Origin: Acidimicrobiia bacterium
GTDB taxonomy: Bacteria; Actinomycetota; Acidimicrobiia; Spongiisociales; Spongiisociaceae
Reading direction: 5' to 3'
Assembly: GCA_041576165.1 (NCBI GenBank)
Contig: JBFGLM010000002.1
Span: 96,001-160,000 of the forward strand
Length of the DNA stretch: 64,000 bases
The notes beneath the pieces were generated by a model. The model saw only the letters and a program-made list of their open reading frames with translations. It was not told where the DNA came from and did no database searches. The translations under genes and the position numbers were made by a program. Numbering within the stretch: position 1 is the first letter of the stretch; every line of letters starts with the position of its first letter. Below, in pieces: positions 1 to 15,487 of the stretch.

Positions 1-1
1 G

Positions 2-337
2 ACCGGTCTCCAATCCATGCATCCGGGGGGTGACTTCCTTCGGTGGCTCAACGTGCCGACCGGCATCGGAAGCCGCTACTACGCCCTCGCCGGCAATTTC
101 GAGCCGGCGGACCGGGGGTGGGCGAACTGGGCCAAGAACCACCTCATGGACGCAATATTCCAAGGTAACAATGATCTTGTCGTACCGACCAAGGGTGTCT
201 TTGCCGCCAACGGATCCACCCAGTTCCCGGTGGACCAGCGACTGGAGTTCGGTGCCGACGCCGGTATCAACCACAGCACCTTCTTCGCAGACCAGATCGT
301 CCAGGACAGACTGCTGTCGTGGCTCGGGTCGGGCTAG
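2..337 (+). CDS. C-terminal fragment of an alpha/beta-hydrolase (lipase/esterase-like) protein, 5'-truncated by the window edge
   Basis: Frame is open from base 2 (TGLQSMHPGGDFLRWLN...). YYALAG, NDLVVP (candidate catalytic Asp) and INHSTFF (candidate catalytic His) fit the C-terminal half of small lipase-like folds. Confidence 0.6.
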   Translation, partial: TGLQSMHPGGDFLRWLNVPTGIGSRYYALAGNFEPADRGWANWAKNHLMDAIFQGNNDLVVPTKGVFAANGSTQFPVDQRLEFGADAGINHSTFFADQIVQDRLLSWLGSG

Positions 338-432
338 CGCGGCCTGGTTTTCAACCGTCCGGCATCGGACGGTCGAGATGCGTAGGGTCGGGACGGGACT
401 GGGGGTAGAAGTCGCACGTGGGACAAGGTCGG

Positions 433-3400
433 ATGGTGGCGAGCGGCGATCCACAAACATATGAACGCCCGGTCGCAAGGCCGGTGGCCGGCCGTCGTAC
501 GTTCGCCCTGTGGCTCATCGTCGCGGCTGCCCTTCTCGTCATAGCGGCAACGCTGGCGGCACTGCCGATAGCTCATGGACTGGAGGAACACTGCACCGGC
601 GATATCGTCGTCATGATCGATGCGCCGCTGCGGGCCGGTCCGCTCGATTGGTCGTTCAGCACCGAGGTTGTCGACCTCTCGGGTGACCCGATCCCCCCCG
701 GCACCTACGACGTCAGCCTGGTGACTTCCGACCCAGGGCACGCGCAGCCGGGGGACGTGAGCCAGCCGGCCGAAATCTGGTACGTCGAGCTGCTCGATGC
801 CGATACGAGTCCGATCTACACCTCCGAGTGGACGACCGACCTGGCCGATACCGCTACCGAGCGGATTGATGCCGTCCAGCCCCAGGCGGTTCTCGAGTCC
901 GCCGCCATCACGCTGGTCGCGCGCCACGCCATCGAGGAGATCGAGCGCGACGGGAACGGCAACATCGTGGCCAGCGGCATCAACTCGCTCACCGCGGTGT
1001 GCGCCATCTTCAACTCGGTCTCCATGCCTGTTCTGCCCCTGGAGGTTGGCATCGCAGCCGAGGTGGATCCCGGATCAGTGACGGTCGGCGCCGCCTCCCC
1101 CGCGACCTTCCAGCTTTCGATCAGCAATATCGGCCAGGCTCCAGCCGGCGAGCTGGTGATCGATCAGCCCTTGTGCGGAGACGTCACGGGTCAAACGCTC
1201 GCTCCTGGCGGCGTGGTGACGGTGTCATGCCAGGTCGACGTGTCTCACGGCGGGGTGCTCGATTTGAGAGTCACGGGCGTGAGCGACGGCCGGGCGGTCG
1301 CCGGCGAGACGATGCTGGCGGTGCTCGTCTCAGAGCTCATGATCGAGCCCGAGGCACCGCTGGTTCAGGGGACCCAGGGCGGGTCAGCCACCATTGAGGG
1401 GGTCATCCGCGACAGTGGAACAGTGGCGCTGGCCGAGGTCACGCCCGCGGTCACCGGGCTGCCCGCCGGGGTCACTGCCTCCTGCGGCGCGGCCCCCGAC
1501 CTGGCCCCAGATCAAGAATCCAGCTTCACCTGTTCGCTCGCCGGTGTCGCCGCTGGTGGATCGGCGTTCGACGTTGCCGTCGGTGTGACCGCGGTGAGCG
1601 CCAACCCGGCCCGGGTGGCGGCGGCCGATACCGCCACTGTGACCGTCGTGCCGTGGGAGTCGCAGCCGGCGCTCACGATCGAGATCACACCGGAGACGAT
1701 CACGGTGACCGAGGGGGATACGGTGCAGTACACCGTCGTCGTGGGAGCCGCCGGTATCAATGTGCCTATCGACGTGATGGTTGATACTCCGGCCGACCAA
1801 TGCAGCCGCCAGATTCCGGCCGGCGCCGCCTTCCCCGATGTCCTGACGTGTGAGGTCGTGGCGACCAACACAACCACGATCGATGCGACGGCAACGGCCG
1901 ACACCGGAGGCGCCCAGCCACTCACGGCCACCGATGTATCGACCTTGATCGTCGAGGGCCTGGTCGACATCGAGCTGGACGTCTCGCTAGACGAGCAAAG
2001 GATCGACGTGGGAGACACGGTCGAAATGAGGGTGCTGGTGCGGAACCTCGGCCCGGCTAAGTCCGGGAAGGTGACGGTTGAGATTGATCTGCCCTCAACG
2101 ATCGGCACCGTGAGGTGCTCGGGCCCGCCCGCCGACACATTTGTTTGCTCACGCTGGGTTATCGAAGATGGTCTCGAGAAGGATGACCAGGCGGTTGCCT
2201 CCTACATCCTGCGCGGCGCGGCAGCCGGCTCCGACCCGATAGTTGCCGAAGTCGTTGAAATCGAGGGTGCCCGCGATACCGACTCGGAGCCAGACGACCA
2301 GACCGGCGACGACCACGACTCTGAGGCCCTGATCGTCGAGCGGCCGCCGAATCGCATCATCCCTCGGGGCACCATCAGCGGCTGTGTCTTTCTCGACGAC
2401 GACGAAGACGGCGAACTCGACACCGGCGAAGAGCTGCTCGACGGTGTCCGGGTGTTTTCGGGCTCCAGCAGCGACTTGACCGCCGGCTCGGGGTATTCGT
2501 TCCGGATAGAGGCCGGCACCTACCGGGTGGCGGTCGATGTGGACACCCTGCCGGGTCTCTTCGACTTCTCGACTCCCGCGACCCGCCTTGTCACGGTCCG
2601 GGCCAACCGAACAACGTCCGACATCTGCTTCGGCGTCGTGCCGACCGGCGTCTACACCTTCACCCTTACCGCCGATCCGGCAGAGATCCAGATCGATTCC
2701 ACGGCGGCCGTGAGCGTGCTCGTCGACGGCCCGGACCGGCCCGACGTCCCGGTCATCTTCGATCCGCTGCCCGGCGGCTTGGAGCTGGTCGGTCCCCGCC
2801 GGGTCGACGTGACTGTGGGCGAGCCCTTCGACGTCGAGATCAAAGGGGAACAAAACGGTCGATATTTGATATCAGCGCGAGCCCAAACCGACGGCGTCAC
2901 GGGACCAGTGGCAACGACTGCGCTGATTGTCATGCTTCCCCCCTCCAAGATAGGGGGCACGGTATTCGTGGATTCCGACGGGGACGGCGTGCTGGACCCC
3001 GACGAGGAGCCGCCGGCAGACGCATCGACCCTGCGGGTCCTGGCGATCAAACGCGACAAGATCCAGCCGGCCGCCGCTCAATCTGCGGGCTCGGGGCTCG
3101 GGTACTACGGCTCGGGGGTCCTTCAGTCCCGGATATCCCTGTTCCAGGGCGCGTCGCTGCTCGGCTTCGTCTTCTTCGTGGATGAAAACGGCCGCTACGT
3201 TACAGAGACGCTCACGCCGGGCAAGTACCAGCTGGAGCTGATCGATTCGGCCGACCGGCGCATCGAGTCGCTGCCCGAGGGCCGCCAGATCGCCCTGCCC
3301 CGCGACGCCGGCAATCACGACCTGGACTTTGCAGTGACCGCCCAGCTCGACGCCGACCGGATCAGCGGCCGGGTGTGGATCGACGAGAACGGTAACGGCG

Positions 3401-5769
3401 AGATAGATGACGGCGAACGGGGATGGGGCGGTGCCATGGTCACGATCTCCGACCTCGATGGGAACACCGAACCACAGATCGTGACGACCGAGCTGGTCGC
3501 GGGCGATGAGGCCCGATATGACGCGGTCGTCGAGCCGGGCCGCTATCGGGTCAGCATCGCCGATCAGGGGGGCGCCGAGCTGGGCTTCTCGACCGCGCAT
3601 CCGATCGACGTCGAGGTGCCCGGTGGCATCCCGTTCGACCAGGTGGACTTCGGCGTCACCGATGGGCCATTCGGCGTCATCAGTGGCGGCGTCTGGTGCG
3701 ATGTCAATGACAACGGAACGCTTGATCAAAACGAGACCAGCTTCCCCGGCGTTGTGACCTTGGGCGGGCCGGTCGGGCAGCGCACGGCCACTGTCCAGGC
3801 GGACGGGCACTACGAGTTCTCCGGGTTGAGCAAGGGCGATTACACGGTGGCCTACACCCAGCAGCGTTCCGAAGCCGACCCGATCGAAAAAAACGAGACG
3901 GTCACGCTCGGGCTGGCAGAGGTGAGAAACGACGTTGATCTCAAGCCCTGTCCCAAAGGTTCCATCGGCGGAATCATCTACGTCGACGAAAACAACAGCG
4001 GCTCCTTTGAAGAAGGAGCCGACCGCCCGGCGCGTGGGATCAGCGTCCAGTTGTGGCATTCAGGTGCTCCGATCTCGGAGCGAGCGGCCGTTGAGGTCGA
4101 GGATGTCCGAGAGGGGGAAGCCGCCCGATACCTGTTCCAGCATCTCGCCCCGGGCCTCTACAGGGTCGTCGTCATCGGTGCTGTTGATGACGCGACACTC
4201 GCCATCGGCCGGCGCACGCCCGTGACGATCGAGCCCGGTAGCACCGAGCGCGTCGATCTCGACGTGCGTTTCACCACACAGTCGGGCATCCCGCTCTGGG
4301 TGTGGGTCCTCCTCGGCGGCGCGGCGGCCTTGGCGATCCTGTACTACCTGACGCGGCACGTGCCGGTGCCCATGCCTGTCCCCATCCCAGGGTCGCCGCC
4401 TACCGACCGGGGGCCACCGACCCCGACCCCGTATCCGGGTGTCCGGCCCTTCGGACCGGCCGAGGCGCCGGTATTCGCCGGACGAGAACGCGAGATCAGG
4501 GCGCTCGAAGCTCTGACGTATCCCAACAGGATCCTGCTGCTGTACGGCCCGGCCGGTGCCGGCAAGACCTCGCTGCTGCAAGCTGGGTACATCCCTGCGC
4601 TCGACCCAACGGAATTCGAGGTCCTGCCCACTGCCCGCTTCCAGCTTGGACCGCCGCGCCCGCCCACGGATGGCGCCAACGTCTTCTCATATGCGGTGCT
4701 CTCTTACCTGTCTCAGTCCGCCGTGCCGGCTGCCGCCACCCTGGCGGATTACCTAGATCAGCGCCCGCCGATTGTTGGGGAATTCGACGTCGAGGTGGCG
4801 CGGGTGATCGTGATCGACGAGTTCCAGGAGATGTTCCGGCTCTATCCGGAGTACTGGCACCAGCGTCAATCCTTCTTCGATCAGATCGGCGAGGCGCTGG
4901 AATCCGATCCGCTGGTCCGGTTCGTGCTGTGCATCGACGAGCATGAGATGGGGGAGCTGGAGCCATTCATCGAGCAGTTCGGGCCACACGTCGTCTCGGA
5001 ATACCGAATCGAGCCGCTCCGGCCGGAGCAAGCGCTGGCGGCGATCTCCCATCCTGCGGAGCTGGACGGACGGCGTATGTCCGAGGCGGCGGCCGCGGCG
5101 TTGGTGGACGAGGCTCGCACCGTGCGTGCCGAGCATGACGGGCACCGGATCGAGGTTGTGTACGAGCATGCCGACCCGATGGCACTCCAGCTCAGCGCCG
5201 AAGCTACCTGGCGCCACGCTGACGGTGACGAGATTGGGCCCGACGACATCGTCGGGTGGGAGGATGGCGATGCTGCGATCGAGGCGTTCTACGAATCGAT
5301 CGTGGCCGCGGTGGCTCCCCAGGCCGGTGAAGCCGCGTTGAGAGAGTGGTGTGAGCGGGTTCTGATCGACCCGACCGGCAACCGGGCGGTGCTGGTCCCG
5401 GGTCGCGGCGGCGCCCGCCAGATGCCGGCCGACGTCATCGAATCGTTGACCATGCACACCTTGCTGGTCGGGTCGGTACGCGGAGACGTCCGCTGGCTGG
5501 AGCTGGCGCATGATCGTCTCGTGCCTGCCATCGAGCTCAGCAACCGGAAATGGAGGGAACAAACGCTGATCGAGGCATCGGCCGGCCTGCTCTCGGCCGC
5601 GGCCCGGATCTGGGAACGGCATGGCCGGGATGAAGACGGCCTCCTCGTGGACGGTGCGTTGACCGACGCCCGTCTGTGGGCGGCGGCGTATCCCACGCGG
5701 GTGGGTCCGCTCGAGCGTGAATACCTGGAGGCCAGCATCGCCGCCAGCGAGCGACCCGTCGGCAGCTGA
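433..5769 (+). CDS. Receptor-like membrane protein: signal peptide, Ig-like/DUF11 domains, 5 SdrD-B-like repeats, TM helix, Pro-rich linker, nSTAND1 NTPase
   Basis: Long ORF (start GTG 418 or ATG 433) with an RR-hydrophobic N-terminus. Five G-x-V/I-(F/W/Y)-x-D-x-D/N-x-D/N/S-G repeats at ~2368, 2944, 3355, 3673, 3958. TM helix GIPLWVWVLLGGAAALAILYYL at ~4285-4350. nSTAND1-type motifs PYPGVRPF..FAGRERE, Walker A GPAGAGKTSLLQAG, Walker B VIVIDEFQE, and ELAHDRL. Confidence 0.88.
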   Translation: MVASGDPQTYERPVARPVAGRRTFALWLIVAAALLVIAATLAALPIAHGLEEHCTGDIVVMIDAPLRAGPLDWSFSTEVVDLSGDPIPPGTYDVSLVTSDPGHAQPGDVSQPAEIWYVELLDADTSPIYTSEWTTDLADTATERIDAVQPQAVLESAAITLVARHAIEEIERDGNGNIVASGINSLTAVCAIFNSVSMPVLPLEVGIAAEVDPGSVTVGAASPATFQLSISNIGQAPAGELVIDQPLCGDVTGQTLAPGGVVTVSCQVDVSHGGVLDLRVTGVSDGRAVAGETMLAVLVSELMIEPEAPLVQGTQGGSATIEGVIRDSGTVALAEVTPAVTGLPAGVTASCGAAPDLAPDQESSFTCSLAGVAAGGSAFDVAVGVTAVSANPARVAAADTATVTVVPWESQPALTIEITPETITVTEGDTVQYTVVVGAAGINVPIDVMVDTPADQCSRQIPAGAAFPDVLTCEVVATNTTTIDATATADTGGAQPLTATDVSTLIVEGLVDIELDVSLDEQRIDVGDTVEMRVLVRNLGPAKSGKVTVEIDLPSTIGTVRCSGPPADTFVCSRWVIEDGLEKDDQAVASYILRGAAAGSDPIVAEVVEIEGARDTDSEPDDQTGDDHDSEALIVERPPNRIIPRGTISGCVFLDDDEDGELDTGEELLDGVRVFSGSSSDLTAGSGYSFRIEAGTYRVAVDVDTLPGLFDFSTPATRLVTVRANRTTSDICFGVVPTGVYTFTLTADPAEIQIDSTAAVSVLVDGPDRPDVPVIFDPLPGGLELVGPRRVDVTVGEPFDVEIKGEQNGRYLISARAQTDGVTGPVATTALIVMLPPSKIGGTVFVDSDGDGVLDPDEEPPADASTLRVLAIKRDKIQPAAAQSAGSGLGYYGSGVLQSRISLFQGASLLGFVFFVDENGRYVTETLTPGKYQLELIDSADRRIESLPEGRQIALPRDAGNHDLDFAVTAQLDADRISGRVWIDENGNGEIDDGERGWGGAMVTISDLDGNTEPQIVTTELVAGDEARYDAVVEPGRYRVSIADQGGAELGFSTAHPIDVEVPGGIPFDQVDFGVTDGPFGVISGGVWCDVNDNGTLDQNETSFPGVVTLGGPVGQRTATVQADGHYEFSGLSKGDYTVAYTQQRSEADPIEKNETVTLGLAEVRNDVDLKPCPKGSIGGIIYVDENNSGSFEEGADRPARGISVQLWHSGAPISERAAVEVEDVREGEAARYLFQHLAPGLYRVVVIGAVDDATLAIGRRTPVTIEPGSTERVDLDVRFTTQSGIPLWVWVLLGGAAALAILYYLTRHVPVPMPVPIPGSPPTDRGPPTPTPYPGVRPFGPAEAPVFAGREREIRALEALTYPNRILLLYGPAGAGKTSLLQAGYIPALDPTEFEVLPTARFQLGPPRPPTDGANVFSYAVLSYLSQSAVPAAATLADYLDQRPPIVGEFDVEVARVIVIDEFQEMFRLYPEYWHQRQSFFDQIGEALESDPLVRFVLCIDEHEMGELEPFIEQFGPHVVSEYRIEPLRPEQALAAISHPAELDGRRMSEAAAAALVDEARTVRAEHDGHRIEVVYEHADPMALQLSAEATWRHADGDEIGPDDIVGWEDGDAAIEAFYESIVAAVAPQAGEAALREWCERVLIDPTGNRAVLVPGRGGARQMPADVIESLTMHTLLVGSVRGDVRWLELAHDRLVPAIELSNRKWREQTLIEASAGLLSAAARIWERHGRDEDGLLVDGALTDARLWAAAYPTRVGPLEREYLEASIAASERPVGS

Positions 5770-5785
5770 GCTCGATCGCTGCTGG

Positions 5786-7210
5786 CTAACTGATGGCGGC
5801 GGTCTCTCCCCACCGCCGGCGCAGCTCGTCGGTGAACTCCTCGGGCTTGCCGGGATACAGCGATAGGTTCCACTGCTGGTTGAAGTAGCCCTTGACGTAG
5901 TCGATCATGCCCGGGTCGGCGTCCGGGCTGACCTGCACCGCCACATTGAGGAGCTGGTTGCTGACTCCGTGCCGGAAGCGGGGCAGGATGGCGTGAAGGA
6001 GCGCCCGGAATCCCAGGTCGTCCCAGTCGAAACCCAGGAACAGCAAGGCCCCTTTGCCAATCGCGTGCAGGATCGCCTGGGGCAACGTCGTCTGATCGCT
6101 GGTGACCCCTACTGCGAACGACAGGTAGTCGTCCTCGGACAGGATCATCGACTCGGCGTGGTGGTCGCCGCTGGTTCCGTATAGGTGATAGACGACCGGT
6201 TCGGTGGCTTTCAACTCGAACGAGGGGTCGTGGAGCCTGGAGGATTGTTCCGGCATGATCGCCTCGGACGGCCTATAGCGGTCGGACATCGGTATCCGCG
6301 GGTTGGGCTGCTCCTGCAGCGCCGCTTCGAGATACGCGTCCTGGTTGGTTGTCAGGTATACGGCAAGCGGCAGATCCGCCAGAATCCGGTACGGCGCAGT
6401 CTTGTCCGCCGCGTCGGAGATCTTCAGCTTCTCCAGCCGCTCGGACAAGGCATAGTTGGCCATCAGCTGGTCCTGAGAGTTCTTCACCTTCACGAACTGA
6501 ACCACCCGGGCAAACTCGCGCGCCCACCGGCGGGCCAACCTCTCCTGCGCGTCGGGCTCCTCGCTCGCCGCCAACTCGATCAGGTCGGCCGGTCGGTGAT
6601 AGCCGAACTTGTCCGCCCAGTCGGCGGCCAGGTCTGCCTTGATTCTGGTTGCGTCGGGTGACAAGCCGCCACCGAGGAAGGGCACCAACTTGCCGCGCTT
6701 GATATTGGCGATCAGCGCATCCCAGTCCTGGTCGGAGAAGCCGGTATCGGTGCTGCGCCACTCGATTGACCGGCTCTTGAACGTCTCCTCGATCTCTTCG
6801 ATCAGGGGCTCGAGGCTGGCCGCCTTCTCCTCGGTCAATTGGAAGGCTGGTTTCATCGCCACCTCGAGCAGCGCTTCCGGAAGCTCGTCCTGCGTGGGGC
6901 GCTCGACATCTGGCGCCATCAGCAACAGGATCCGGGCCGGGCCTCGTAGTGCCTGATGTAGCAGGTCGGCGATCGGATCGCCGTCTGTGTGCAGGGCTAC
7001 CGACCCGGTCTCGTCTTCGGCCAGCCATTGATCCCCGACGAGAACGACCAGCACCTCGGTATCGCTGAGCCGGTCGGCGCTGTCGGTATCCGGCGACGGC
7101 TGATCCAGAGCCACGTTGTGATCGCCGAAGTGCCGCGCCAGTAGCTCCCGGGTCGTTGAAGCAAGACCGGCCGTATCGGACCTGCGGTAACTGATCAGGA
7201 TCGTGGCCAC
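5786..7210 (-). CDS. TIR domain + SIR2-like (SIR2_2) domain protein
   Basis: GTG start at 7210 with GGAGG 5 nt upstream. N-terminal ILISYRRSDT..LARHFG..NV..D is TIR-like. C-terminal half has LVPFLGGGLS, YLTTNQD, VYHLYG and LLFLGF (SIR2_2 motif series). Confidence 0.85.
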   Translation of the reverse strand: MATILISYRRSDTAGLASTTRELLARHFGDHNVALDQPSPDTDSADRLSDTEVLVVLVGDQWLAEDETGSVALHTDGDPIADLLHQALRGPARILLLMAPDVERPTQDELPEALLEVAMKPAFQLTEEKAASLEPLIEEIEETFKSRSIEWRSTDTGFSDQDWDALIANIKRGKLVPFLGGGLSPDATRIKADLAADWADKFGYHRPADLIELAASEEPDAQERLARRWAREFARVVQFVKVKNSQDQLMANYALSERLEKLKISDAADKTAPYRILADLPLAVYLTTNQDAYLEAALQEQPNPRIPMSDRYRPSEAIMPEQSSRLHDPSFELKATEPVVYHLYGTSGDHHAESMILSEDDYLSFAVGVTSDQTTLPQAILHAIGKGALLFLGFDWDDLGFRALLHAILPRFRHGVSNQLLNVAVQVSPDADPGMIDYVKGYFNQQWNLSLYPGKPEEFTDELRRRWGETAAIS

Positions 7211-7288
7211 ATCGTCCTCCCGTTCGGTTTCCACCCTACGCATTCACCCGTGTCCGTGGCCGGCACCGCTTGGGTAGGGTGCTAGTCC

Positions 7289-8944
7289 ATGGATCTCGCG
7301 CAACTGCTGACCGAACTCGGTCAAGCGCTCGGCGCCCATGACGAGACGGCGGTGGCAGACATCGTTGACCTGGTCGTTGCGCACATCCTCGGGTCGGATG
7401 AGCCGTTCTCGCCCGAGCTGGCCACCGAGATGCTGGGCACGCTTTTCCACAAGCGCAGTTTCCAGTCGGTAGCACGGCTGGGCGATGCCCTGTTGCAGGT
7501 CGGCGTAGACGAGCCGAAGGTGCGGGGTTACTACGCAGGCGCTTTGGCTGAGGAAGGCTTCTTGACGCCGGCCGAATCGATGGCTGAGAGTCTCAAGTCC
7601 AATTCGGTGGAAGATCCAGCCGAGCGGGCGTGGGCGCAGGAGTTCCTGGGCGGGGTCCGATCCCGGCTGTACGTTCAGGCGACGGGCATGCGGGGGGCGC
7701 GCCGTGAGCGCTTCCTCGACGGAGCGCTATCGGAGTATTGGGGCGCGTACGACGTCGCCCCGGGCGACCACCCCTCTCACGGCATCCAGGTCGTCGGGTT
7801 GCTCAGGCGGGCGGAGGCCGACGGTGTTGACCCGGGCCATTACGGAGACACGACCGAGATCGCCCGCAGGGTGGCAGAGACCGTGCGTGATTCACTCCGA
7901 CCGTCGGACCTGGTCACAGCCGTCAAGGCGGCCGTCACGCTGGGCGACGGCCACGCCGCGCTGGAAGCCGCCACCCGGCTGATCAGCCATGAGCAGGCCG
8001 AGGCGTACGAGCTGAGTGCGCTGCTGTGGGATCTCACGAACATCTGGGGCGTCGACGAAGCACGCGACGACAACAAGCAGCTGATCGGGTTGATCAAGAC
8101 CGGGCTGATGCAGCGGCCCGACTTCAGTCGAGTCGAGCTGACGCCGTCGGAGGCGAGAGCCGCCGCCGAGGGCCTCGACCGGGTCGGAGCCGGCGCGGTA
8201 CCGAGCGGAGCGGCGGATATTCAGCAGGACATCCCGGGCCTGGAACGGATCCTCGGCAAGGAAGGCGTGCGGACCCGGCGGTGGATCCTCAACATGCTCG
8301 ATCGGAGCCGGGCCGTCGCTCGAATAGAGGACCACAGCGAGAAAGCGATGGGCACCGGCTTCCTAGTGCCCGGTCAGGCTCTGCACGATTCGCTCGGTGA
8401 GCAGATGGTGCTCGTCACCAACAACCACGTCATTGCGTCCCGGCCCGAACGCAACCAACTGAAGCCTCTCGAAGCCGTCGCCCGCTTCCAGGCGCTTGAG
8501 GAAGAGGGCGAACGGGCCGGCGTCGACGTAGGCGACCCGATCTTCGAGTCGCCCGTGGAGAAGCTAGACGTGTCCGTTCTCGAGTGCGGGGCCCCCGAGG
8601 GAATGACGCCTTACCGGATCGCCGAGGATCTGCCGGATCACGACGCCATCGATGAAACGGCCAAGGTCTACGTCATCGGGCACCCGGGGGGCCGTACGCA
8701 GTCATTCTCGCTCGACGACAATCTACTGATCGACTACGACGACGAGGTGCTTCACTACCGGTCGCCGACCGAACCGGGGAGTTCAGGGAGTCCGCTGTTC
8801 GATCAGCAGTGGAACCTGATCGGCCTGCATAGTCGCGGCAACGAGAACTTGCCCAAGCTCAGAGGCCAGCCGGGCCGGCGTGAAGCCAACATGGGTTTTC
8901 GCATCACTGCAGTGAGAGCGGCGATGGAAATCTCGCTGCGGTAG
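7289..8944 (+). CDS. Trypsin-like serine protease with N-terminal helical (TPR/DUF4071-like) region
   Basis: GTGFLV, TNNHV (His), KLDVSVL (Asp), YVIGHPGG and TEPGSSGSPLF..W.LIGLH (Ser). The first ~300 aa have an amphipathic helical pattern and no signal peptide. Confidence 0.9.
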   Translation: MDLAQLLTELGQALGAHDETAVADIVDLVVAHILGSDEPFSPELATEMLGTLFHKRSFQSVARLGDALLQVGVDEPKVRGYYAGALAEEGFLTPAESMAESLKSNSVEDPAERAWAQEFLGGVRSRLYVQATGMRGARRERFLDGALSEYWGAYDVAPGDHPSHGIQVVGLLRRAEADGVDPGHYGDTTEIARRVAETVRDSLRPSDLVTAVKAAVTLGDGHAALEAATRLISHEQAEAYELSALLWDLTNIWGVDEARDDNKQLIGLIKTGLMQRPDFSRVELTPSEARAAAEGLDRVGAGAVPSGAADIQQDIPGLERILGKEGVRTRRWILNMLDRSRAVARIEDHSEKAMGTGFLVPGQALHDSLGEQMVLVTNNHVIASRPERNQLKPLEAVARFQALEEEGERAGVDVGDPIFESPVEKLDVSVLECGAPEGMTPYRIAEDLPDHDAIDETAKVYVIGHPGGRTQSFSLDDNLLIDYDDEVLHYRSPTEPGSSGSPLFDQQWNLIGLHSRGNENLPKLRGQPGRREANMGFRITAVRAAMEISLR

Positions 8945-8992
8945 CGCTCGCTGTGCCCGCCCGAACCGAGTTCAGGGCGGGGCCGTCGCGGC

Positions 8993-9616
8993 TCAGCGCT
9001 CGGTGGGCGGGAACGCCGTCTGCTTCGGCGGAGCCCACCTGACCCGCTCTTGCCACGGATCGGCGGGCACGAGCTCAAATACCTCGGCGTGGAGCGGCTT
9101 GTCGCCGTTGAGGGTGTGCAGCGAACGGCCGGTGAGGCCGAGGCGGGCGGCCTGAATGGGATCCTGATGAGAGACGACGGCGACTGGACCGTCGATCTGC
9201 GCAGACCAGCGGCCGATCGCGGACGCCATGCGGTGCGCCAGAGCGGCCAGCGACTCGGCGGACCACGGCAGGTCCCACGGGTGCCGCAGATAGGCGTCGA
9301 GCTCGCCGGGATAATGGTCGTCGAGCTCCTCCCATACCAGGCCTTTCCAGCGCTGGGCCATACCCCACTCGGTGAGCTCATCATCGATCCTGACTTCGAG
9401 GCCGTGCGGTCGAGCGATTGCTGCGGCGGTTTCACGCGCCCGCCGCAGGGGAGACGCCACCACGGCCGCGAGCCGGCGGGGAGCCAGGTACTCGCCGGCC
9501 TCGTCGGCCTGGCGACGGCCGAGATCACTCAGCCCGAATCCCGGAAGGTCGGCATATACGATGTGGTCGGGGTTGTGCACCTCGCCGTGGCGCACGAGAA
9601 ATACGGGGTGTGACAC
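8993..9616 (-). CDS. Histidine phosphatase (phosphoglycerate mutase-like) family protein
   Basis: LVRHGE, SPLRRARETA and VVSHQD motifs. GTG at 9616 is preceded by TACACT-N7. Confidence 0.9.
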   Translation of the reverse strand: MSHPVFLVRHGEVHNPDHIVYADLPGFGLSDLGRRQADEAGEYLAPRRLAAVVASPLRRARETAAAIARPHGLEVRIDDELTEWGMAQRWKGLVWEELDDHYPGELDAYLRHPWDLPWSAESLAALAHRMASAIGRWSAQIDGPVAVVSHQDPIQAARLGLTGRSLHTLNGDKPLHAEVFELVPADPWQERVRWAPPKQTAFPPTER

Positions 9617-9644
9617 GAGTTCGAGTGTAAGGGTCCCGGGAGCA

Positions 9645-10853
9645 GTGACAGAAACCGAGCGGCGGTTCGACGAGCCGATTCTCCACGTCGACATGGATGC
9701 CTTCTATGTAGAGGTGGAACGGCTGCGCGATCCGTCCCTGGTGGGGGCCGCGGTCGTGGTCGGCGGTGCCGGGCCCCGAGGCGTCGTGGCGTCCGCCTCC
9801 TATGAGGCGAGGGCATTCGGGATCCGATCAGCAATGGCCATGGGCGAGGCTCGGCGGCGGTGCCCGGAACTGGTGGTCGTGGCGCCCGATCACGGGCGTT
9901 ACGGCGAGGTTTCCGAGGCGGTGTTCGAGATCTTTCGCAGCTACACCCCCGTGGTCGAAGGGTTGAGCGTCGATGAGGCGTTCCTCGACATCCGGGGCCT
10001 GCGCCTGCATTACGGGTCGCCGCTGGAGGTGGCGGCGGCGATCAGAACCCAGATCCGTCATGAACTTGGCTTGCCCGCCTCGGTCGGCATCGCGGCCACC
10101 AAATTCGTAGCCAAGCTGGCGTCGGCCCACGCCAAGCCGGACGGAATCAGACACGTTGCGGCCGGAGCGGAGGCCGCATTCCTCCACCCGCTGGCGGTGC
10201 AGGAGCTATGGGGGGTGGGCGCGGCTACCCACGCGGCGCTCGAACAGCTCGGGGTGGAAACGATCGGAGATCTGGCTGCAATCCCTGCGCCGACGCTCCA
10301 TCGAAGGCTGGGAACGGCGGTGGGGGGCCAGCTGGCCGCGCTGAGTCATGGGATCGATCCCCGCACGGTGGAACCCGATCTCGCAGCCAAGTCCCTGTCC
10401 GTCGAACACACCTATCCCGTCGATATCAGCGGCTACGAAGTCTTGGAGTCCGAAACGCTCCGGCATGCTGAGCGCCTGGGTAGCCGGCTCAGGAGGGCCG
10501 GGCTGAGCGGCCGTACCGTCGGACTCAAGCTGAGATACGCCGACTTCACGACAGTGACCCGCAGCGAGACGCTGGCGTCGCCGACCGACGTCAGTCGCGA
10601 CATCTATCAGGCGGCCAAGCGCCTGTTGGCCGGGCTTGACGTTGGAGACCGGCCGGTGCGCCTTCTAGGTGTGGGGATGAGCGGGCTGAGCGAAGCGGGC
10701 GGTATCCGTCAGCTGGCCGTCGACCGTCCTGCCAAATGGGACGACGTTGCTGATGCGGTGGAGAGCGTTCGACGGCGCTACGGTAACGATGCAGTGGCTC
10801 CGGCGCGGCTGCGGGACACCCCCGACGAAGGGGCCTCCGAGCGACCGGATTGA
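9645..10853 (+). CDS. dinB: DNA polymerase IV
   Basis: ILHVDMDAFY, ASYEAR, SVDEAF and AKPDG Y-family motifs. Start set at GTG 9645. Confidence 0.96.
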   Translation: MTETERRFDEPILHVDMDAFYVEVERLRDPSLVGAAVVVGGAGPRGVVASASYEARAFGIRSAMAMGEARRRCPELVVVAPDHGRYGEVSEAVFEIFRSYTPVVEGLSVDEAFLDIRGLRLHYGSPLEVAAAIRTQIRHELGLPASVGIAATKFVAKLASAHAKPDGIRHVAAGAEAAFLHPLAVQELWGVGAATHAALEQLGVETIGDLAAIPAPTLHRRLGTAVGGQLAALSHGIDPRTVEPDLAAKSLSVEHTYPVDISGYEVLESETLRHAERLGSRLRRAGLSGRTVGLKLRYADFTTVTRSETLASPTDVSRDIYQAAKRLLAGLDVGDRPVRLLGVGMSGLSEAGGIRQLAVDRPAKWDDVADAVESVRRRYGNDAVAPARLRDTPDEGASERPD

Positions 10854-10901
10854 GCGGTCTCAACCGGAGATTGAGCCTTCAGCCTTGTCTCGGTCGCTGC
10901 G

Positions 10902-10907
10902 TATAAT
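10902..10907 (+). promoter_or_regulatory. -10 element (TATAAT) upstream of the DUF3040 gene
   Basis: Perfect TATAAT in GC-rich intergenic DNA, 36 nt before ATG 10944. Confidence 0.55.
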
Positions 10908-10943
10908 GGCTCAGCGAGTTGGCCGACGGGCCCAGGAGACCGG

Positions 10944-11285
10944 ATGCCATTGGACGAACGAGAACAGCGGATCCTCGACGAAATCGAGCGGCAATTCCGG
11001 GAGGAAGATCCCGAGCTGGTAGAAGCGGTCAACACGATGCCGCTGGCGCGGTTCGCCAAGGGCGGCATCAAGCTCTCGATTCTCGGTGTCATAGTCGGCC
11101 TGGTGCTGATGCTGGCCACCTTCTCGATCAACCCTTTTCCGGCCCTTGTCGGTTTCGTGATCATGGTCTATTCGGTCACACGGCTCGTTTCGGCTCTCGG
11201 TGATGGCTCCCGGAGTCGTTCCAGCGGCGGCGGCGCCGGAAAAGTTCGAAATCGATTCAGAAGTCTCTGGCCTTTCGGGCGCTGA
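10944..11285 (+). CDS. DUF3040 family membrane protein
   Basis: MPLDEREQRILDEIERQF.EEDP N-terminus followed by two TM helices. Confidence 0.9.
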   Translation: MPLDEREQRILDEIERQFREEDPELVEAVNTMPLARFAKGGIKLSILGVIVGLVLMLATFSINPFPALVGFVIMVYSVTRLVSALGDGSRSRSSGGGAGKVRNRFRSLWPFGR

Positions 11286-11304
11286 CCCGGTTCTGCGGGC
11301 TAGA

Positions 11305-11324
11305 GTGGCCGGACTTCCGGCCAC
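11305..11324. terminator. GC-rich hairpin, possible terminator
   Basis: GTGGCCGG-ACTT-CCGGCCAC perfect 8-bp stem 20 nt after the DUF3040 stop; no U-tract. Confidence 0.35.
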
Positions 11325-11433
11325 AGCTGAGCGATCACTGATCGAGTCACTTCCCCAATTGGCTCGCTGAGGCCTGGCGGAGCAAGCGGAGGATTGGCGA
11401 CACTTCGGGTGTCGTGCGGGTCGTGGGAGAGTG

Positions 11434-11928
11434 ATGGCTGAGGGGTTCACTGCGCAGCAGGCGTCCCGATTGACGAACTGCACGCAGCACCAGTTGCGCT
11501 ATTGGGACAACGTAGGTTTGGTTCAGCCCTCCGTGCAGGGGACCGGTGGGCGTCCCGGGGTCCGGCGCATGTACTCGTTCCGGGATCTCGTCGCCCTTCG
11601 GGTGGTGCGGGCGTTGCTCGACAATGGCATGTCGGTCCAGCGGGTCAGGCGAGCATGGTCGTACCTGCGGCGTAATGGAGATTTCGACAAGCACCTGTCG
11701 GAGGTCCGTCTCGTGTCCGACGGCCGCACGATTTTCCACGTGAACGCCGACGAGGACGAGATCCTCGACGCACTACGGGCGGGGCAGCTTGCCTTCTTCG
11801 GGACGATCGATCACGTTACGAGGTCGGTCGAGGAGGATATCACCCGGTTTGAGCTCGACCGGGAGCAGTTCCTCGAGGTTCTGCGGCGAGTGGAGGACGA
11901 CGTGCTGGCCGAGGTCGTCGAGGGCTGA
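11434..11928 (+). CDS. MerR-family HTH regulator (resembles the actinobacterial Rv1830/McdR type)
   Basis: QLRYWD..GLVQPS, RRMYSFRDLVALRVVRALLD.G.S.Q.VR and LVSDG.TI motifs. Confidence 0.88.
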   Translation: MAEGFTAQQASRLTNCTQHQLRYWDNVGLVQPSVQGTGGRPGVRRMYSFRDLVALRVVRALLDNGMSVQRVRRAWSYLRRNGDFDKHLSEVRLVSDGRTIFHVNADEDEILDALRAGQLAFFGTIDHVTRSVEEDITRFELDREQFLEVLRRVEDDVLAEVVEG

Positions 11929-11966
11929 ACGGACCCCGGTGCGGACTAGGTGCTCGAGGGGCTGGC

Positions 11967-14327
11967 TCAGTCGCCGTGCGACCGGAGCGAGCGCAGATTG
12001 AACCAGCGCAGAAGGCGGCGGGTCTTCGAGTATCGCTCTCGCAGCCCGGTCTCGGTTCGGAGGTACGACGCTTCGGCCCACTGGAGACGGGGTGCCGAGA
12101 CCTCGGCTTCCGGGCCGTACATCACCTTCGTATATGTGAGCGCCAGGGGCTCCATCGCCGGGTCGGTCGACGCAGCAACCTCGGTCGGGGTAGCCGACCG
12201 AGGGACGGGATCGCCGAGATCAGCCAGCTGGTCGGTGATCTCGTACCAGGCCGCGCTGATGTCGCCCCGATTGAGCCGCCGGAGGCGTCGCCGCCGGCGC
12301 CACCACTTATAGGCGGGGATGGCACTGAGCAGGGCGGCCGCGATGGGCAATACGAGCAGTTGCCATGGGAACGGCCGGCGTACGGCGTCCGGGTCGAATC
12401 CCGGTAGGACAATGTCGGGCGACGAGGGGGCCTCGGCGATCTGGTTCAACAGCTCCAGCGCCGGGCCGTCGATCGCGTTGTTGACTGCGGTCTCGGTGGC
12501 GTCGCTGCCATCGTCCTGGAGCGGCACGTAGTTGCGCGGGTCAAAGCCGAGGGAGTTGACGAGGCCCGGATTGTCGGCCTGCCGCCGGGGAGTCGGATCG
12601 AACTGCACCCATCCCTGCTCCGGGAACCAGACTTCGACCCATGAATGTGCATCGTTTTGGCGCACGGTCACGGTTCCGTTCGCGTCGATGTCACCGGGGG
12701 CGAAGCCGAGGATGACCCGGCTGGGAATGCCGAGAGTTCGCGCCATCACGGCCATGGCGGTGGCGAACTGTTCGCAGTAGCCGATTCGGTAGTTGATGCT
12801 CTCGGGATCGGTCAGCCACGATTCGAGGTCCTGCGCGGAGTGGCCCGGGTCGATCGTGACGTCGTAGGTGAAGTTGTCCGACCTCAGGAAGGCTTCCATG
12901 AACAGTGCCCGCTCGAAGTCGGTGGCGGCCGCCGCCGTGAGCTCCCGGGCAAACCCTCCCACGGTGCTTTGTGCGATCGACGGCGGGAGCTCCAGGAAGA
13001 CGTCCAGATTCTCCGGTTCGGGACGGGGCGCCACGCCTGCCGCCTGGCCCTCGAACACGCCTTGCTGGCGGGCCTCCTCGAAGATCCCCGAAAGTGAGCC
13101 TTCCCGTGAGGCCAGAACGTCGAAGTTGGGGGCCGGTATCTGCGACGTCACCTGGTAGTTGAGGCCTTCAAACGTGAGCGCGTCAAAGCGCACGGCCCCG
13201 TCCTCGCGGATTCGGAAGCTTTCGGTCAAGATCTCAGACTGGGACGCAAGTGCGACCGGGGTGTACGCGGCGGGGAGGTAGTTCTGGCGCAGGGAAGCGA
13301 TCGTGATGTCCTGGCGAACGGTGGTGGTAGGCCCGATGAAGACCTGATCCGGGTTCTCCCACGGAGTTCCCGGCTCGGGCCTGCGAATCTGGGAACGGCG
13401 CGGGAACCAGTTCGTCCCATCGAAGCTTTCCAGCGCGATCAGCTTCCAGTAGACGTCGCCCGGGTCGATGTCGCCCTCAATTCGGGCTGTGAAGACCGGA
13501 GTGTCCGACTGCGAGACCAGGCTCTGCTGCACCCCCACAAAGAGGTTGTAGCTGACTCCACCGAAGATCCCATTGCCGAAGCCGGTGCGGGCACGCCAGT
13601 TGAGCACGCCCGATTCGGGAACTCGGTCGGCCAGTATCCCCGAGACCAGCACCGTGATGATCAGGAGGCCGACGACGTAGGCGCCGGGTCGACCGGCGGA
13701 CAGCGCAGAGACGTATCGGTTTTCACGATCTCGCAGCCGACCGGTCCCGGCCGTCCGCTCGTCATAGGCAACGGCCAGCAAGCTCGCGAGGAGAAGCCCC
13801 AGGAAAGCGAACGTCCAGCCGAGCCCGGGTGGGACTCGATCCATCGTGGCGAGCTGGAGGTAGAGGAGGAGGCCGGGCACGATCGCGATGATCGGCCGGC
13901 CGGTGGTGAGGGCCCACACCACGACAGCTCCGATGACCCAGAAGAGCCAGGTGAGGAGCAGGATTATCCCGGCCACCGGCACCACAGGAGCTGTCCCGAA
14001 CCGGATCAGCTCGAAGCCAAAGGCCAGCTCCCGTACCGTCTCGCCGACGGTGGCCGGGGTCGGGATCAGGCCGAACAGCGCCGTGTCGGGGGCGGCGATC
14101 CGGATCGTAGCGAGCACGAGGCCGATCCCGTTGGCGATGAGTAAACCGGACAGGCTGGCGCGATAGGACAGGGCCACCCAGGTGATGACTCCACCGAGCA
14201 AGAGAGCGGCGATCAGAACCAGCTGCCAGGGCGGGCCCTGAGAGGCCGTCCGCAGCAACCGCTCCATTCGTAGCAGCGCCAGGATCAGCCCCGCCGCGGT
14301 GGCGAACCAGGTCAGACGGTTGACCAT
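11967..14327 (-). CDS. Transglutaminase-like membrane protein (DUF3488 + TGc)
   Basis: Multiple N-terminal TM helices, GYCEQFA (Cys), HSWVEV (His) and WVQFDPTP (Asp). ATG 14327 overlaps the end of the DUF58 gene. Confidence 0.93.
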   Translation of the reverse strand: MVNRLTWFATAAGLILALLRMERLLRTASQGPPWQLVLIAALLLGGVITWVALSYRASLSGLLIANGIGLVLATIRIAAPDTALFGLIPTPATVGETVRELAFGFELIRFGTAPVVPVAGIILLLTWLFWVIGAVVVWALTTGRPIIAIVPGLLLYLQLATMDRVPPGLGWTFAFLGLLLASLLAVAYDERTAGTGRLRDRENRYVSALSAGRPGAYVVGLLIITVLVSGILADRVPESGVLNWRARTGFGNGIFGGVSYNLFVGVQQSLVSQSDTPVFTARIEGDIDPGDVYWKLIALESFDGTNWFPRRSQIRRPEPGTPWENPDQVFIGPTTTVRQDITIASLRQNYLPAAYTPVALASQSEILTESFRIREDGAVRFDALTFEGLNYQVTSQIPAPNFDVLASREGSLSGIFEEARQQGVFEGQAAGVAPRPEPENLDVFLELPPSIAQSTVGGFARELTAAAATDFERALFMEAFLRSDNFTYDVTIDPGHSAQDLESWLTDPESINYRIGYCEQFATAMAVMARTLGIPSRVILGFAPGDIDANGTVTVRQNDAHSWVEVWFPEQGWVQFDPTPRRQADNPGLVNSLGFDPRNYVPLQDDGSDATETAVNNAIDGPALELLNQIAEAPSSPDIVLPGFDPDAVRRPFPWQLLVLPIAAALLSAIPAYKWWRRRRRLRRLNRGDISAAWYEITDQLADLGDPVPRSATPTEVAASTDPAMEPLALTYTKVMYGPEAEVSAPRLQWAEASYLRTETGLRERYSKTRRLLRWFNLRSLRSHGD

Positions 14328-15487
14328 GTGGACTGCACCCCTTTCAACCACGCCGGCGCCCACGGGTCGTGTGGCCCGACGGTGATCGTGGTCGCGCCGC
14401 CGCGCTGGAATTGCACCAGCGACTCGGGTGGCTCATCGGTGACCGACAGCAGAACCGTCCGCCCGAAGTCGCGTGAGAGCAGCCGCTGAGCCTCCAGCAG
14501 CTCGTTGTCGCCCACCCCCGTGATCAGAACCAGTGCCCCGCCACGGGCGCCCCGCCGCAGATGCATTGCCGCAGCCCGGATGTCGAGATCTTCCTCGAGC
14601 TGGACCCTCGCCAGCGCCTCCATGGCCGAAGCGTAGGGCGACCCGGCGTTGGAGCTGACCGGTGCTCCACCGGTCCAAAGGTCGGCCGCGAAGCCCTCCC
14701 GGTACAAGTGGCGGATCACCGAGGCGGCGCCGCGAACGGCCCGTTCGAAAGCGGCCGGAGACTCGTAGGCGGATTCTCGCGGGTCGAGCAAGACCAGCGC
14801 TCTCGCCTGCCACGGCGTCTCGAGCTGGCGGATCATCAGCCGGTCTCGCTTCGCCGAGCTCGGCCAGTGAACCCGGCGCAGGTCATCGCCGATCTGGTAC
14901 TCCCTGAGTGTAAAGAAATCCTCGCCGCCCCGGTGGCTGAATTCCGGTTTGGCCGCATGGACCGACGGATCGAGGCCGCGTACTATCGGGAACCCTTCGA
15001 GGTCCTCCACCGAGGGATACACAATGAGCTGGTCCCCCTCGCCGACCGAGACCGAAACCGACGCCAGTCCGAGCGGATCTGAGGTGGTGATAGTTGCTGG
15101 CCCCACCTCGTAGATGCCCCGCGGTCGGCATAAGATCTGATACGAGGCGGAAGCCGAGGTGCCGCGGGCCAGCAGACCGAGGGCGAAGCGAGCGGTGCCC
15201 AGGCCCGACACGGTGTCCTCCACCGTCACGTTGCGCATTGCGAACCGTCCCCGGTTGGCAACGGCGGTAGACACCGACGCCTGATCTCCTTCGTGCACCA
15301 GGTTGGGGGTGAGGCGTCTCGTGACCGCAGCGACCGGTATCGTCACCTTGACGAGGATGAGCGCCAGTCCCACGCCGGCGATCAACAGCACACCGGAACC
15401 GAGCAGTTCGATTTCCCCCAACGCCACGAACAGAATCAGGAGTGCGATACCCGCCCCGAGCGCGGCCCAGCCGCGGTCGGTCAGCAT
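14312..15487 (-). CDS. DUF58 domain protein
   Basis: RGIY..GP, LREYQIGDDLRRVHWPSSAK..LMIRQ motifs; lies directly downstream of the MoxR ATPase. Confidence 0.93.
   Translation of the reverse strand: MLTDRGWAALGAGIALLILFVALGEIELLGSGVLLIAGVGLALILVKVTIPVAAVTRRLTPNLVHEGDQASVSTAVANRGRFAMRNVTVEDTVSGLGTARFALGLLARGTSASASYQILCRPRGIYEVGPATITTSDPLGLASVSVSVGEGDQLIVYPSVEDLEGFPIVRGLDPSVHAAKPEFSHRGGEDFFTLREYQIGDDLRRVHWPSSAKRDRLMIRQLETPWQARALVLLDPRESAYESPAAFERAVRGAASVIRHLYREGFAADLWTGGAPVSSNAGSPYASAMEALARVQLEEDLDIRAAAMHLRRGARGGALVLITGVGDNELLEAQRLLSRDFGRTVLLSVTDEPPESLVQFQRGGATTITVGPHDPWAPAWLKGVQSTWSTV

Follow-up and report, generated by a model that had tools for sequence, protein, structure and literature searches.

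Can a STAND NTPase, the switch of bacterial NLR-like immune proteins, be governed from outside the cell? The question is raised by a locus of an Acidimicrobiia bacterium (GenBank assembly GCA_041576165.1, contig JBFGLM010000002.1), of which forward-strand positions 96,001 to 160,000 were analysed; this stretch of 64,000 nucleotides (nt) is the window to which coordinates refer unless noted (Table 1). One of its genes, here called C, encodes a protein whose long, adhesin-like N-terminal part is joined by a single transmembrane (TM) helix to an NTPase of the nSTAND1 family, and it is accompanied by four further genes, A, B, D and E. A previous sequence-only reading of the window had proposed that C is a single-pass receptor ATPase, and the receptor idea is plausible. 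In our reading, to which we give a probability of about 0.55, the C protein works as the NLR-like switch in a conflict system not characterised before, through which an extracytoplasmic domain is coupled to effectors that deplete NAD or cleave proteins. The conserved partner genes, which encode TIR-SIR2, TPR-trypsin, CHAT and DUF7379 proteins and were missed by the sequence-only reading, carry most of the functional information.

The fusion on which this reading depends is real. The frame of gene C runs uninterrupted from GTG 418 to 5769 on the forward strand (1783 codons), and the protein-database copy (P0002) starts at ATG 433, with AAGG 5 nt before it, to give 1778 amino acids (aa). In a source assembly of 161 contigs with 7.5% estimated contamination, one might suspect that the frame is chimeric or that a sequencing error has merged two genes. 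However, the frame contains no stop codon or frame shift, three further proteins from other assemblies (P0003, P0004 and P0123) are colinear with C through ectodomain, TM helix and NTPase, and Logan contigs from three public runs and two studies match the junction with 0 differences. Run X3 spans 3957-4627, run X4 spans 3600-4332 and 4313-4954, and run X5, from another study, spans 4216-4502, such that the stretch 4270-4440, singled out earlier as the place to check, is crossed by all three. Runs X1 and X2 were set aside because the assembly may derive from them, and the contigs of X5 and X6 leave parts of 3600-5200 without cover. As such, a chimera is excluded as far as public data go, and we consider an artefact of either kind to have a negligible chance of explaining the frame. 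Within the NTPase part, the depth of public contigs jumps 5-10 fold at 4518-4571, the Walker A codons; the extra contigs are 31-48 nt long with 3 mismatches, and the jump is P-loop sequence of other organisms, not a trait of gene C.

A Kyte-Doolittle scan of C finds exactly two hydrophobic segments, at aa 31-49 and aa 1290-1308, in agreement with the signal-peptide-like N-terminus and the one TM helix with in-frame Pro-rich linker that had been noticed from the letters alone. The first segment is preceded by R26-R27 in a net-positive flank (5 K+R vs 2 D+E) and followed by acidic sequence; the second leads through TRH into a basic, Pro-rich stretch, with 16 Pro and 7 K+R vs 5 D+E in the 64 residues from the TM helix to Walker A. 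R21, R22, A47 and G49 (P0002 numbering) are invariant in 3/3 orthologues; the A-x-G formed by the last two, a signal-peptidase-like site after a helix-breaking Pro, suggests that the signal peptide is probably cleaved. The TM helix is present in all four full-length proteins (P0002, P0003, P0004 and P0123), and in the alignment of the first three W1289, at its start, is invariant and the PxPxPIP linker is also aligned.

By these sequence rules, the C protein would be type I-like, with its immunoglobulin (Ig)-type part outside, one helix, and, beyond a presumably flexible linker, the NTPase in the cytoplasm. The positive-inside pattern at both hydrophobic segments and the conserved A-x-G site both point to this topology. 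Moreover, the N-terminal half would lie outside because DUF11, SdrD_B, CARDB-like, Big_9 and cadherin-like domains are extracytoplasmic domain types, and the other half inside because an NTPase needs cytoplasmic NTP. The placement of the two halves on opposite sides of the membrane, as proposed before, thus fits both the charge pattern and the domain types.

The ectodomain was described earlier as acidic and beta-rich with a DUF11-like domain, which holds: it comprises about 1,235 residues, with a net charge of -125 and an isoelectric point of 4.05. Its membrane-distal head has no Pfam match and no usable Atlas match, and its AlphaFold2 (AF2) model is all-beta (mean predicted local distance difference test, pLDDT, 74.8), giving only generic two-beta-sandwich matches in Foldseek (TM-score <=0.27). 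Cys54, His103, His165 and Cys190 of the head are invariant in the alignment of P0002, P0003 and P0004, and a Cys54-Cys190 disulfide is predicted. In the stalk, the five calcium-type loops reported before were recovered by pattern search as DxDxDG at P0002 residues 655, 847, 984, 1090 and 1185. These loops lie at nt 2395, 2971, 3382, 3700 and 3985, each after an I(S/G)GxV(F/W)xD strand that opens its domain, so that the stalk, presumably a rigid one, has five SdrD_B-type domains where the Pfam profile sees three. No Omp85/BamA match was obtained in the source genome, which is 96.5% complete (7 diderm controls matched); the host cell is thus probably monoderm, and the stalk would traverse the wall.

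The cytoplasmic part is an intact nSTAND1 module. Pfam PF20703 is matched over profile positions 1-379 of 379 (E 2.3e-28; 100.4 bits vs a cut-off of 27.1, and 105 bits in a search of the own genome), beginning with the N-motif PYPGVRPF at aa 1338 and including Walker A GPAGAGKT (aa 1377), Walker B VIVIDE (aa 1463) and the MHD-like LAHDR (aa 1696), the last three of which are invariant or nearly so among 28 aligned relatives. The sequence-only reading rightly called the P-loop domain complete and placed its other landmarks to within a few bases; its end at 5520 is too early, since the module reaches about 5637 and conserved sequence continues to the stop. Only 43 residues follow the module, and no effector domain was found on the N-terminal side of the NTPase. 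A profile of the C NTPase against Protein Data Bank (PDB) sequences gave only a P-loop match to TRIP13 (E 0.003), and no solved relative. The source genome holds about ten further nSTAND1 genes of Pfam-core type (195-401 bits, frames of 732-2090 aa; contigs C22, C15, C37, C20, C46, C14, C29, C105 and C11; one with an in-frame TAG), and none of these contigs also holds a CHAT, SIR2_2 or Trypsin_2 match. Gene C, with its 105 bits, belongs by contrast to a divergent nSTAND1 sub-clade.

How unusual is this protein? In the usual nSTAND1 context, as given in the available parts of PMC8195603, the NTPase carries an N-terminal effector or effector-associated domain (EAD) and/or a C-terminal repeat or lectin sensor, and C has neither. 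An exhaustive search of 1.84 billion representatives with aa 1285-1783 of C (E <= 0.001) returned 21,021 matches. Among the best 150, a C-terminal NTPase behind a long N-terminal part and TM helix occurs in 4 protein clusters: P0002 (gene C), P0003 (1695 aa, 61%), P0004 (1873 aa, 56%) and P0123 (1272 aa, 42%). The layout is therefore rare. A further match, P0122 (448 aa, 55%), is the NTPase alone and may be a fragment. P0002, P0003 and P0004 can be aligned end to end, and in P0123 Big_9/cadherin-like domains replace the head. Within this family the NTPase part is better preserved (61% identity between C and P0003, 56% between C and P0004) than the ectodomain (32-50%, with large indels), of which the head retains 38-44%. 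With the whole protein as query, no C orthologue was found among 40 relatives from its own family or order. Likewise, a two-motif scan of genome contigs gave no C orthologue among the matches listed; a Streptomyces record (L016) is matched there in the P-loop region alone, at 36%. A scan of metagenome contigs gave one locus, L015; its partial C copy was rejected as an independent fourth example, being the P0004 gene itself (0/1059 residues differ).

The premise from which the layout was first called inverted, namely the usual nSTAND1 order, does not describe the nearest relatives. A word-index search listed 120 proteins, 3 of the C family and 117 others. The NTPase starts within 40 residues of the N-terminus in 113/117 (motif PYVGPRPF…FFGRERE) and is directly followed by a strongly hydrophobic 19-mer in 107/117, this being the sole such segment of the protein in 102 of the 107. 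A basic stretch such as RRLRRL precedes this TM-like segment, and a WD40, TPR, PQQ-propeller, PPC or FGE-sulfatase part comes after it. The exhaustive search agrees, with the NTPase-TM-domain order in 109 of 126 listed relatives of at least 560 aa (16 shorter ones were set aside). Membership of this membrane-tethered sub-clade (NTPase-TM-repeats), a definition of the present analysis, is marked by the PYxGxRPF…GRxxE N-motif and a single TM helix adjoining the module, and C has both. At E <= 1e-30 to the C NTPase, the sub-clade amounts to 2,450 clusters at 50% identity; the proteins listed from it are P0005-P0121 and P0125-P0266.

Taken together, the nearest nSTAND1 sub-clade is itself predicted to have its NTPase inside, followed by a helix and a large domain outside, an order that would place the classical sensor repeats of the relatives outside the cytoplasm. 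The gene C protein ends PLEREYLEASIAAS where the relatives enter the basic stretch and TM helix; in C the outside part instead comes first, preceded by a signal peptide, and it is the opposite end of the NTPase that joins the helix. Gene C thus encodes the inverted form of a membrane-receptor clade rather than the sole membrane form. Accordingly, the earlier claim survives as to the inversion, and its implication that C is unique as a membrane form fails, because the relatives are apparently membrane-spanning too and only the order of parts and the Ig-type ectodomain are unusual in C. The NTPase-TM-repeat clade is large and apparently undescribed. Neither it nor the architecture of C is described in the literature searched, although the supplements of PMC7159879, PMC8195603 and PMC13581612 may list TM-nSTAND1 proteins. 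Membrane STANDs have not gone wholly unremarked, since a 2024 paper, in the part available, reports predicted periplasmic CLec domains in some NACHT proteins targeted by diversity-generating retroelements (DGRs). One protein, P0124 (1292 aa), has two tandem nSTAND1 modules, a TM helix (around residue 869) and then an FGE-sulfatase/CLec-type domain, a domain type reported as the DGR-diversified sensor in STAND proteins.

The neighbouring genes indicate what such a switch could control. Gene D converges on C and is the only SIR2_2 gene in the source genome. Its SIR2 part scores 51.9 bits vs a Pfam cut-off of 24.5 and carries the GGG, TTNQD and YHLYG motifs. Using the AF2 model of D (mean pLDDT 87), VIA-align superposes residues 166-483 on SeThsA (Z 23.1), KomC (Z 21.2) and the SIR2 domain of EfAvs5 (Z 18.7); Foldseek matches KomC, ThsA and DSR2, and a hidden Markov model (HMM) search of the PDB finds ThsA at 4.3e-16. 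Residues 12-152, to which no Pfam family was matched, are a TIR domain by fold: VIA-align superposes them on the SARM1 TIR (Z 16.1, root-mean-square deviation 2.1 at 22% identity over 129 residues), as well as on numerous TIRs from plants and animals. Furthermore, two TIR_2 proteins (P0298 and P0299) match the N-terminal quarter of D, the Atlas search gives a score of 0.90, and a W73…E76 pair may be the equivalent of the TIR catalytic Glu. Gene D thus encodes a TIR-SIR2 protein with NADase-type folds and motifs, for which NADase activity is predicted. Structure-prediction runs pairing the cytoplasmic part of C with D gave 0.64, 0.00 and 0.00, which counts neither in favour of binding nor against it.

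Gene E, which diverges from D, combines a helical N-terminal half with a trypsin-like protease whose triad motifs TNNHV, LDVSV and GSSGSP are all present; the helical half gives a weak TPR-S match (E 0.026; the L015 orthologue reaches 8.8e-05). Upstream of C, the stop of A overlaps the start of B (ATGA). The A protein has the His (LAVHGKY) and Cys (LNACQVG) motifs of a caspase-type dyad, and B has a nucleophile elbow CHSRGG of HSxG/GxSxG type. DUF7379 proteins of about 50% identity are widespread across many phyla (649 matches); the literature searched makes no mention of DUF7379 and no relevant mention of TPR-S. No hydrophobic or TM segment was found in A, B, D or E, and all four proteins would therefore be cytoplasmic.

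Parts of this neighbourhood are conserved. L015, a 7-kb metagenome contig with the P0004 gene, keeps the order of C converging on D and D diverging from E, with D and E 42% and 49% identical to those of the source genome over their full length. Orthologues of D (P0269, 53%) and B (P0302, 76%) come from contigs of 12,392 nt that match that of P0003 in size and source, and those of D (P0270, 41%) and B (P0301, 77%) from contigs of 16,776 nt that likewise match that of P0004. These agreements suggest that each pair shares a contig with the respective C homologue. On this basis three loci hold B, C and D side by side, while the grouping of C with D and E is seen in two loci read as sequence, and the C proteins of the conserved loci are only 42-46% identical.

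A second link runs through the canonical relatives of C. Apart from the orthologues and the two TIR_2-only matches, the homologues of D align with its SIR2 part alone, and 20/33 D matches are CHAT-SIR2 fusions of about 690 aa. Such a fusion lies directly upstream of a canonical nSTAND1-TM gene in both genomes where one was located, G034 (L029) and G196 (L030). Moreover, at the thresholds applied, G196 is the only one of 400 sampled genomes of the phylum to match the SIR2 part of D, and also the only one to match the C NTPase at E <= 1e-20. These gene pairs, this co-occurrence and the single SIR2_2 gene of the source genome together tie the NTPase sub-clade to the SIR2 sub-family of D.

A role in conflict is suggested because effector-type genes (D, E, A and B) are encoded beside the NTP switch C. 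STAND NTPases are switches that oligomerise in an NTP-dependent manner, and they, including nSTAND1, control conflict systems whose effectors are of TIR, caspase and trypsin type, according to the available parts of PMC8195603, PMC7159879 and PMC10907252. In the mechanism that we propose, a surface event such as phage, a foreign cell or envelope damage would engage or cluster the ectodomains of C, and the clustering would bring together the tethered NTPase modules, which could then oligomerise as STAND proteins do. The oligomer would recruit or activate D, with its TIR-SIR2 NADase and possibly TIR-derived signals, and the proteases, and the outcome could be loss of NAD+, growth arrest or death. 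Clustering seems more likely than a piston-like relay because C and its relatives have the helix at opposite ends of the NTPase, and because the linker is Pro-rich. We infer that C is coupled to D and E at all, and likewise which way the signal runs, what serves as ligand and what follows from activation.

Several observations weigh against this reading. No PADLOC (2023) family matches A, B or C; for C, its Avs/bNACHT and other defence models give only P-loop-level matches (PDC-S68, E 0.0016-0.0074; mad8), while ThsA/LmuA models match D weakly (E 2.9e-09 to 1.6e-06), as RT-Protease models do the gene E protein. An all-against-all BLAST of the parts of the five proteins gave nothing below E 0.08 and no shared EAD-like adaptor, leaving no evident route by which C would recruit D or E. 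The topology of C is deduced from hydropathy and charge alone, and the TPR-like half of E could equally be the sensor, with the ectodomain a mere anchor. Gene order is directly visible in only two loci, and for the P0003 locus it depends on contigs that match in length. A and B are fused in one protein, DUF7379 first, in G679, G497 and G035, where the surrounding 8-10 kb contain nothing that matches nSTAND1, SIR2 or trypsin, and they may be an independent module merely adjacent to C-D-E. Finally, the cluster lies in core chromosome and not in a recognisable defence island.

Some of these points lead to other explanations. The ectodomain might sense nothing and act, as an anchor or adhesin across the wall, to hold the NTPase in place at the envelope, perhaps where septa form or phages enter; the NTPase or the TPR-like half of E would then read a cytoplasmic trigger. 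This would suit SdrD_B and DUF11 as structural stalk modules, a head with no recognisable ligand-binding fold, the TPR-S ('sensor') type region of E, and a Pro-rich linker that relays conformational change poorly; the bacterial STANDs characterised in the portions of literature covered also sense intracellular proteins. However, the conservation of the head (38-44%), with its invariant Cys and His residues, argues for a specific function at the tip, and across the membrane the relatives carry WD40, TPR and FGE parts, which are the common sensor types of STAND proteins. We regard such an anchor as unlikely, though worth serious consideration.

The Ig/cadherin-type ectodomain could also bind neighbouring cells, homotypic or foreign, with the NTPase and TIR-SIR2 protein running allorecognition or contact-dependent death or dormancy, like fungal NLR incompatibility. 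The Big_9/cadherin-like tip of P0123 and the faster divergence of the ectodomain relative to the NTPase (32-50% vs 56-61%, with large indels) are consistent with this, and related conflict systems are enriched in multicellular bacteria according to the part of PMC7159879 available. Recognition of this kind would nonetheless be a sub-case of outside-in signalling, not a separate mechanism, and as a specific proposal it is distinctly unlikely. More doubtful again is the idea of C as a surface protein that uses its ATPase to control, from the inside out, how it is itself assembled or turned over, with A, B, D and E as separate systems. The lack of an adaptor domain common to the five proteins, the lack of known-system matches and the occurrence of A and B elsewhere without C, D and E would all be expected if these were unrelated neighbours; yet B, C, D and E stay together though the C proteins have diverged to 42-46% identity, the canonical NTPase relatives adjoin the same SIR2 sub-family, and the NTPase sub-clade and SIR2 sub-family co-occur in the sole positive genome of 400.

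If C is a switch coupled to an outside domain, its layout suggests that events at the surface, among them adsorption of a phage, contact with foreign cells or damage to the wall, can decide on death or defence. In the portions of literature covered, the bacterial STAND/NLR-like immune proteins that have been characterised detect phage proteins inside the cell, and a 2026 survey of STAND receptors, in the part available, treats STANDs as intracellular sensors (PMC13581612); a STAND switch that, apart from its NTPase, has just one large part, and that part outside the membrane, would sense in a different way. A more far-reaching proposal, which we put forward tentatively and well short of an even chance, is that the whole nSTAND1 sub-clade consists of single-pass receptor-type NLRs that watch the cell exterior and trigger cytoplasmic NADase and protease effectors, with C a rare inverted, Ig-stalked form. 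STAND immunity would then not be confined to sensing invaders after entry, and the locus would be a hybrid of Toll-like receptor and NLR, having an extracellular recognition domain, a helix, a NOD switch and a TIR-SIR2 executioner. C may also be viewed as a natural experiment: one kind of NTPase has its membrane tether at the N-terminal end in C and at the C-terminal end in the relatives, which argues for proximity-driven oligomerisation as a common principle of activation. The locus also lends itself to experiment, having a short cytoplasmic fragment and a defined set of partners.

Beyond gene E, the window holds a DinB-type polymerase gene followed on the opposite strand by a MoxR (AAA_3)-DUF58-TgpA transglutaminase operon (9372-16522), which resembles the common housekeeping version more than it does a ternary conflict system. 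Further along, 24098-33422, 39654-43160 and 46162-49722 are core chromosome, with a dcw cluster (penicillin-binding protein transpeptidase and three Mur ligases), IleRS and DnaE; the cluster thus sits in a conserved chromosomal region and not on an evident mobile element. Over nt 1-9500, a repeat scan gave only short matches of 71-75% identity, judged to be chance, and no template/variable-repeat pair of a diversity-generating element, and a scan for promoters and terminators scored the real sequence no better than shuffled sequence.

Table 1. Features of the gene C cluster and of related loci (window positions in nt unless a genome, contig or locus is named; G000, source genome)
Feature	Position	Strand	Basis or remark
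Gene A, CHAT caspase-like protease, 861 aa	G000:C2:92265-94850, upstream of window	+	Pfam CHAT E 1.3e-14
Gene B, DUF7379 alpha/beta-hydrolase-like, 496 aa	start G000:C2:94847; 3' end in window 2..337	+	Pfam DUF7379 E 1.2e-56
Gene C, ectodomain-TM-nSTAND1 protein	433..5769	+	1778 aa; alternative start GTG 418
Signal peptide or signal anchor of C	493..579	+	RR, ~20 hydrophobic residues, P-I-A-H-G; Kyte-Doolittle peak 2.69
Membrane-distal head of C	580..1047	+	conserved beta-sandwich, no named family; alignment and AF2 model
DUF11 (CARDB-like) Ig-type domain of C	1966..2298 (aa 517-627)	+	Pfam E 1.6e-07
Stalk of C, five SdrD_B-type domains	2350..4272	+	Pfam SdrD_B E 1.1e-28, 3 stretches; pattern search
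Single TM helix of C (predicted)	4285..4353 (aa 1290-1312)	+	Kyte-Doolittle peak 2.05
Pro-rich, net-positive, putatively cytoplasmic juxtamembrane linker of C	4354..4428	+	composition
nSTAND1 NTPase module of C	4429..5637 (aa 1338-1740)	+	Pfam PF20703; motifs PYPGVRPF, Walker A, Walker B, LAHDR
Short helical C-terminal tail of C, ending PLEREYLEASIAAS	5638..5766	+	comparison with relatives
Gene D, TIR-SIR2, 485 aa	5786..7243	-	converges on C; Pfam SIR2_2 E 1.1e-13, AF2 model
TIR domain of D	6788-7210 (~aa 12-152)	-	structural match
SIR2 domain of D	5795-6748 (~aa 166-483)	-	Pfam and structural match
Gene E, helical N-terminal half and trypsin-like serine protease, 551 aa	7289..8944	+	diverges from D
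Protease domain of E	8351-8827 (aa 355-513)	+	Pfam Trypsin_2 E 1.6e-18
CHAT-SIR2_2 fusion / nSTAND1-TM-repeat gene	G034 L029 (C64), 7595-9661 / 9671-13624		
CHAT-SIR2_2 fusion / nSTAND1-TM-repeat gene	G196 L030 (C1), 8759-10885 / ~10870-13410		
CHAT-DUF7379 two-gene pair upstream of window	L017 8265-12337		
Fused DUF7379-CHAT genes	L024 3609-7286; L025 9050-12253; L026 8697-12014		

The closest relatives in the NTPase are the proteins of the canonical sub-clade (P0005-P0121, and the genes in L029 and L030), at 30-37% identity. They have in common with C the N-motif PY(V/P)GxRPF…GRxxE, Walker A and B, the HD motif, one membrane helix with a large domain across the membrane, and an adjoining gene of the SIR2_2 family. 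They differ in that their NTPase is N-terminal with the helix after it, whereas C has the outside part N-terminal and the NTPase last. Their outside parts are repeat propellers or TPR rather than Ig/SdrD_B type, and their SIR2 partner is CHAT-SIR2 rather than TIR-SIR2.

The ectodomain invites comparison with the staphylococcal MSCRAMM SdrD, which likewise has an acidic, extracellular stalk of tandem Ca-binding SdrD_B domains. Unlike SdrD, C has no LPXTG sortase signal and no detected A-domain or SD repeat, and its anchor is apparently a TM helix, beyond which lies an enzyme domain in the cytoplasm; C scores 35.5 bits vs 2500 with NCBIfam MSCRAMM_SdrD and 23.7 vs 1700 with a second SdrC/SdrD-type model. 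In overall layout, C is reminiscent of PknB-type kinases and animal Toll-like receptors, in which an extracellular domain is connected by one helix to a cytoplasmic module driven by oligomerisation. The likeness would be one of analogy, with a TIR protein as a neighbour in the case of C, since the signalling module, a STAND NTPase, is non-homologous.

Among defence systems, Thoeris (ThsB TIR and ThsA SIR2-SLOG) similarly combines TIR with a SIR2 NADase-type domain. In D, however, the two are fused, no SLOG was detected, and an NTPase switch and two proteases stand alongside; only the SIR2 part of D matches ThsA, and the PADLOC ThsA match is weak (34 bits). The conflict systems described in 2020/2021 resemble this locus in bringing together caspase, trypsin or TIR effectors, STAND NTPases and membrane elements, and nSTAND1 occurs in EACC1 systems, as far as the available parts of those descriptions go. 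There, a caspase protein has as its partner EACC1, a small constant component with a single TM segment, whereas the membrane element of C lies in the STAND protein itself; no EACC1-like gene was identified at the C locus, where no profile search aimed at EACC1 was made. Avs5 and other SIR2-STAND proteins (EfAvs5, PDB 9jap and 9nc9) share with this locus a STAND NTPase and a SIR2 NADase effector. Avs5 is one cytosolic SIR2-NOD-sensor polypeptide that senses phage proteins inside the cell, according to the available parts of its descriptions, whereas here SIR2 is separate and fused to TIR, and the STAND protein would be membrane-spanning without cytosolic sensor repeats. The NTPase is also of another family, PADLOC giving no Avs match. 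SIR2-STAND proteins such as Avs5 are functionally nearest to the C locus, which would be a split, membrane-spanning and outward-facing counterpart. Viewed in its gene-cluster context, the locus is a variant of STAND-switched conflict systems, with C as its rare component.

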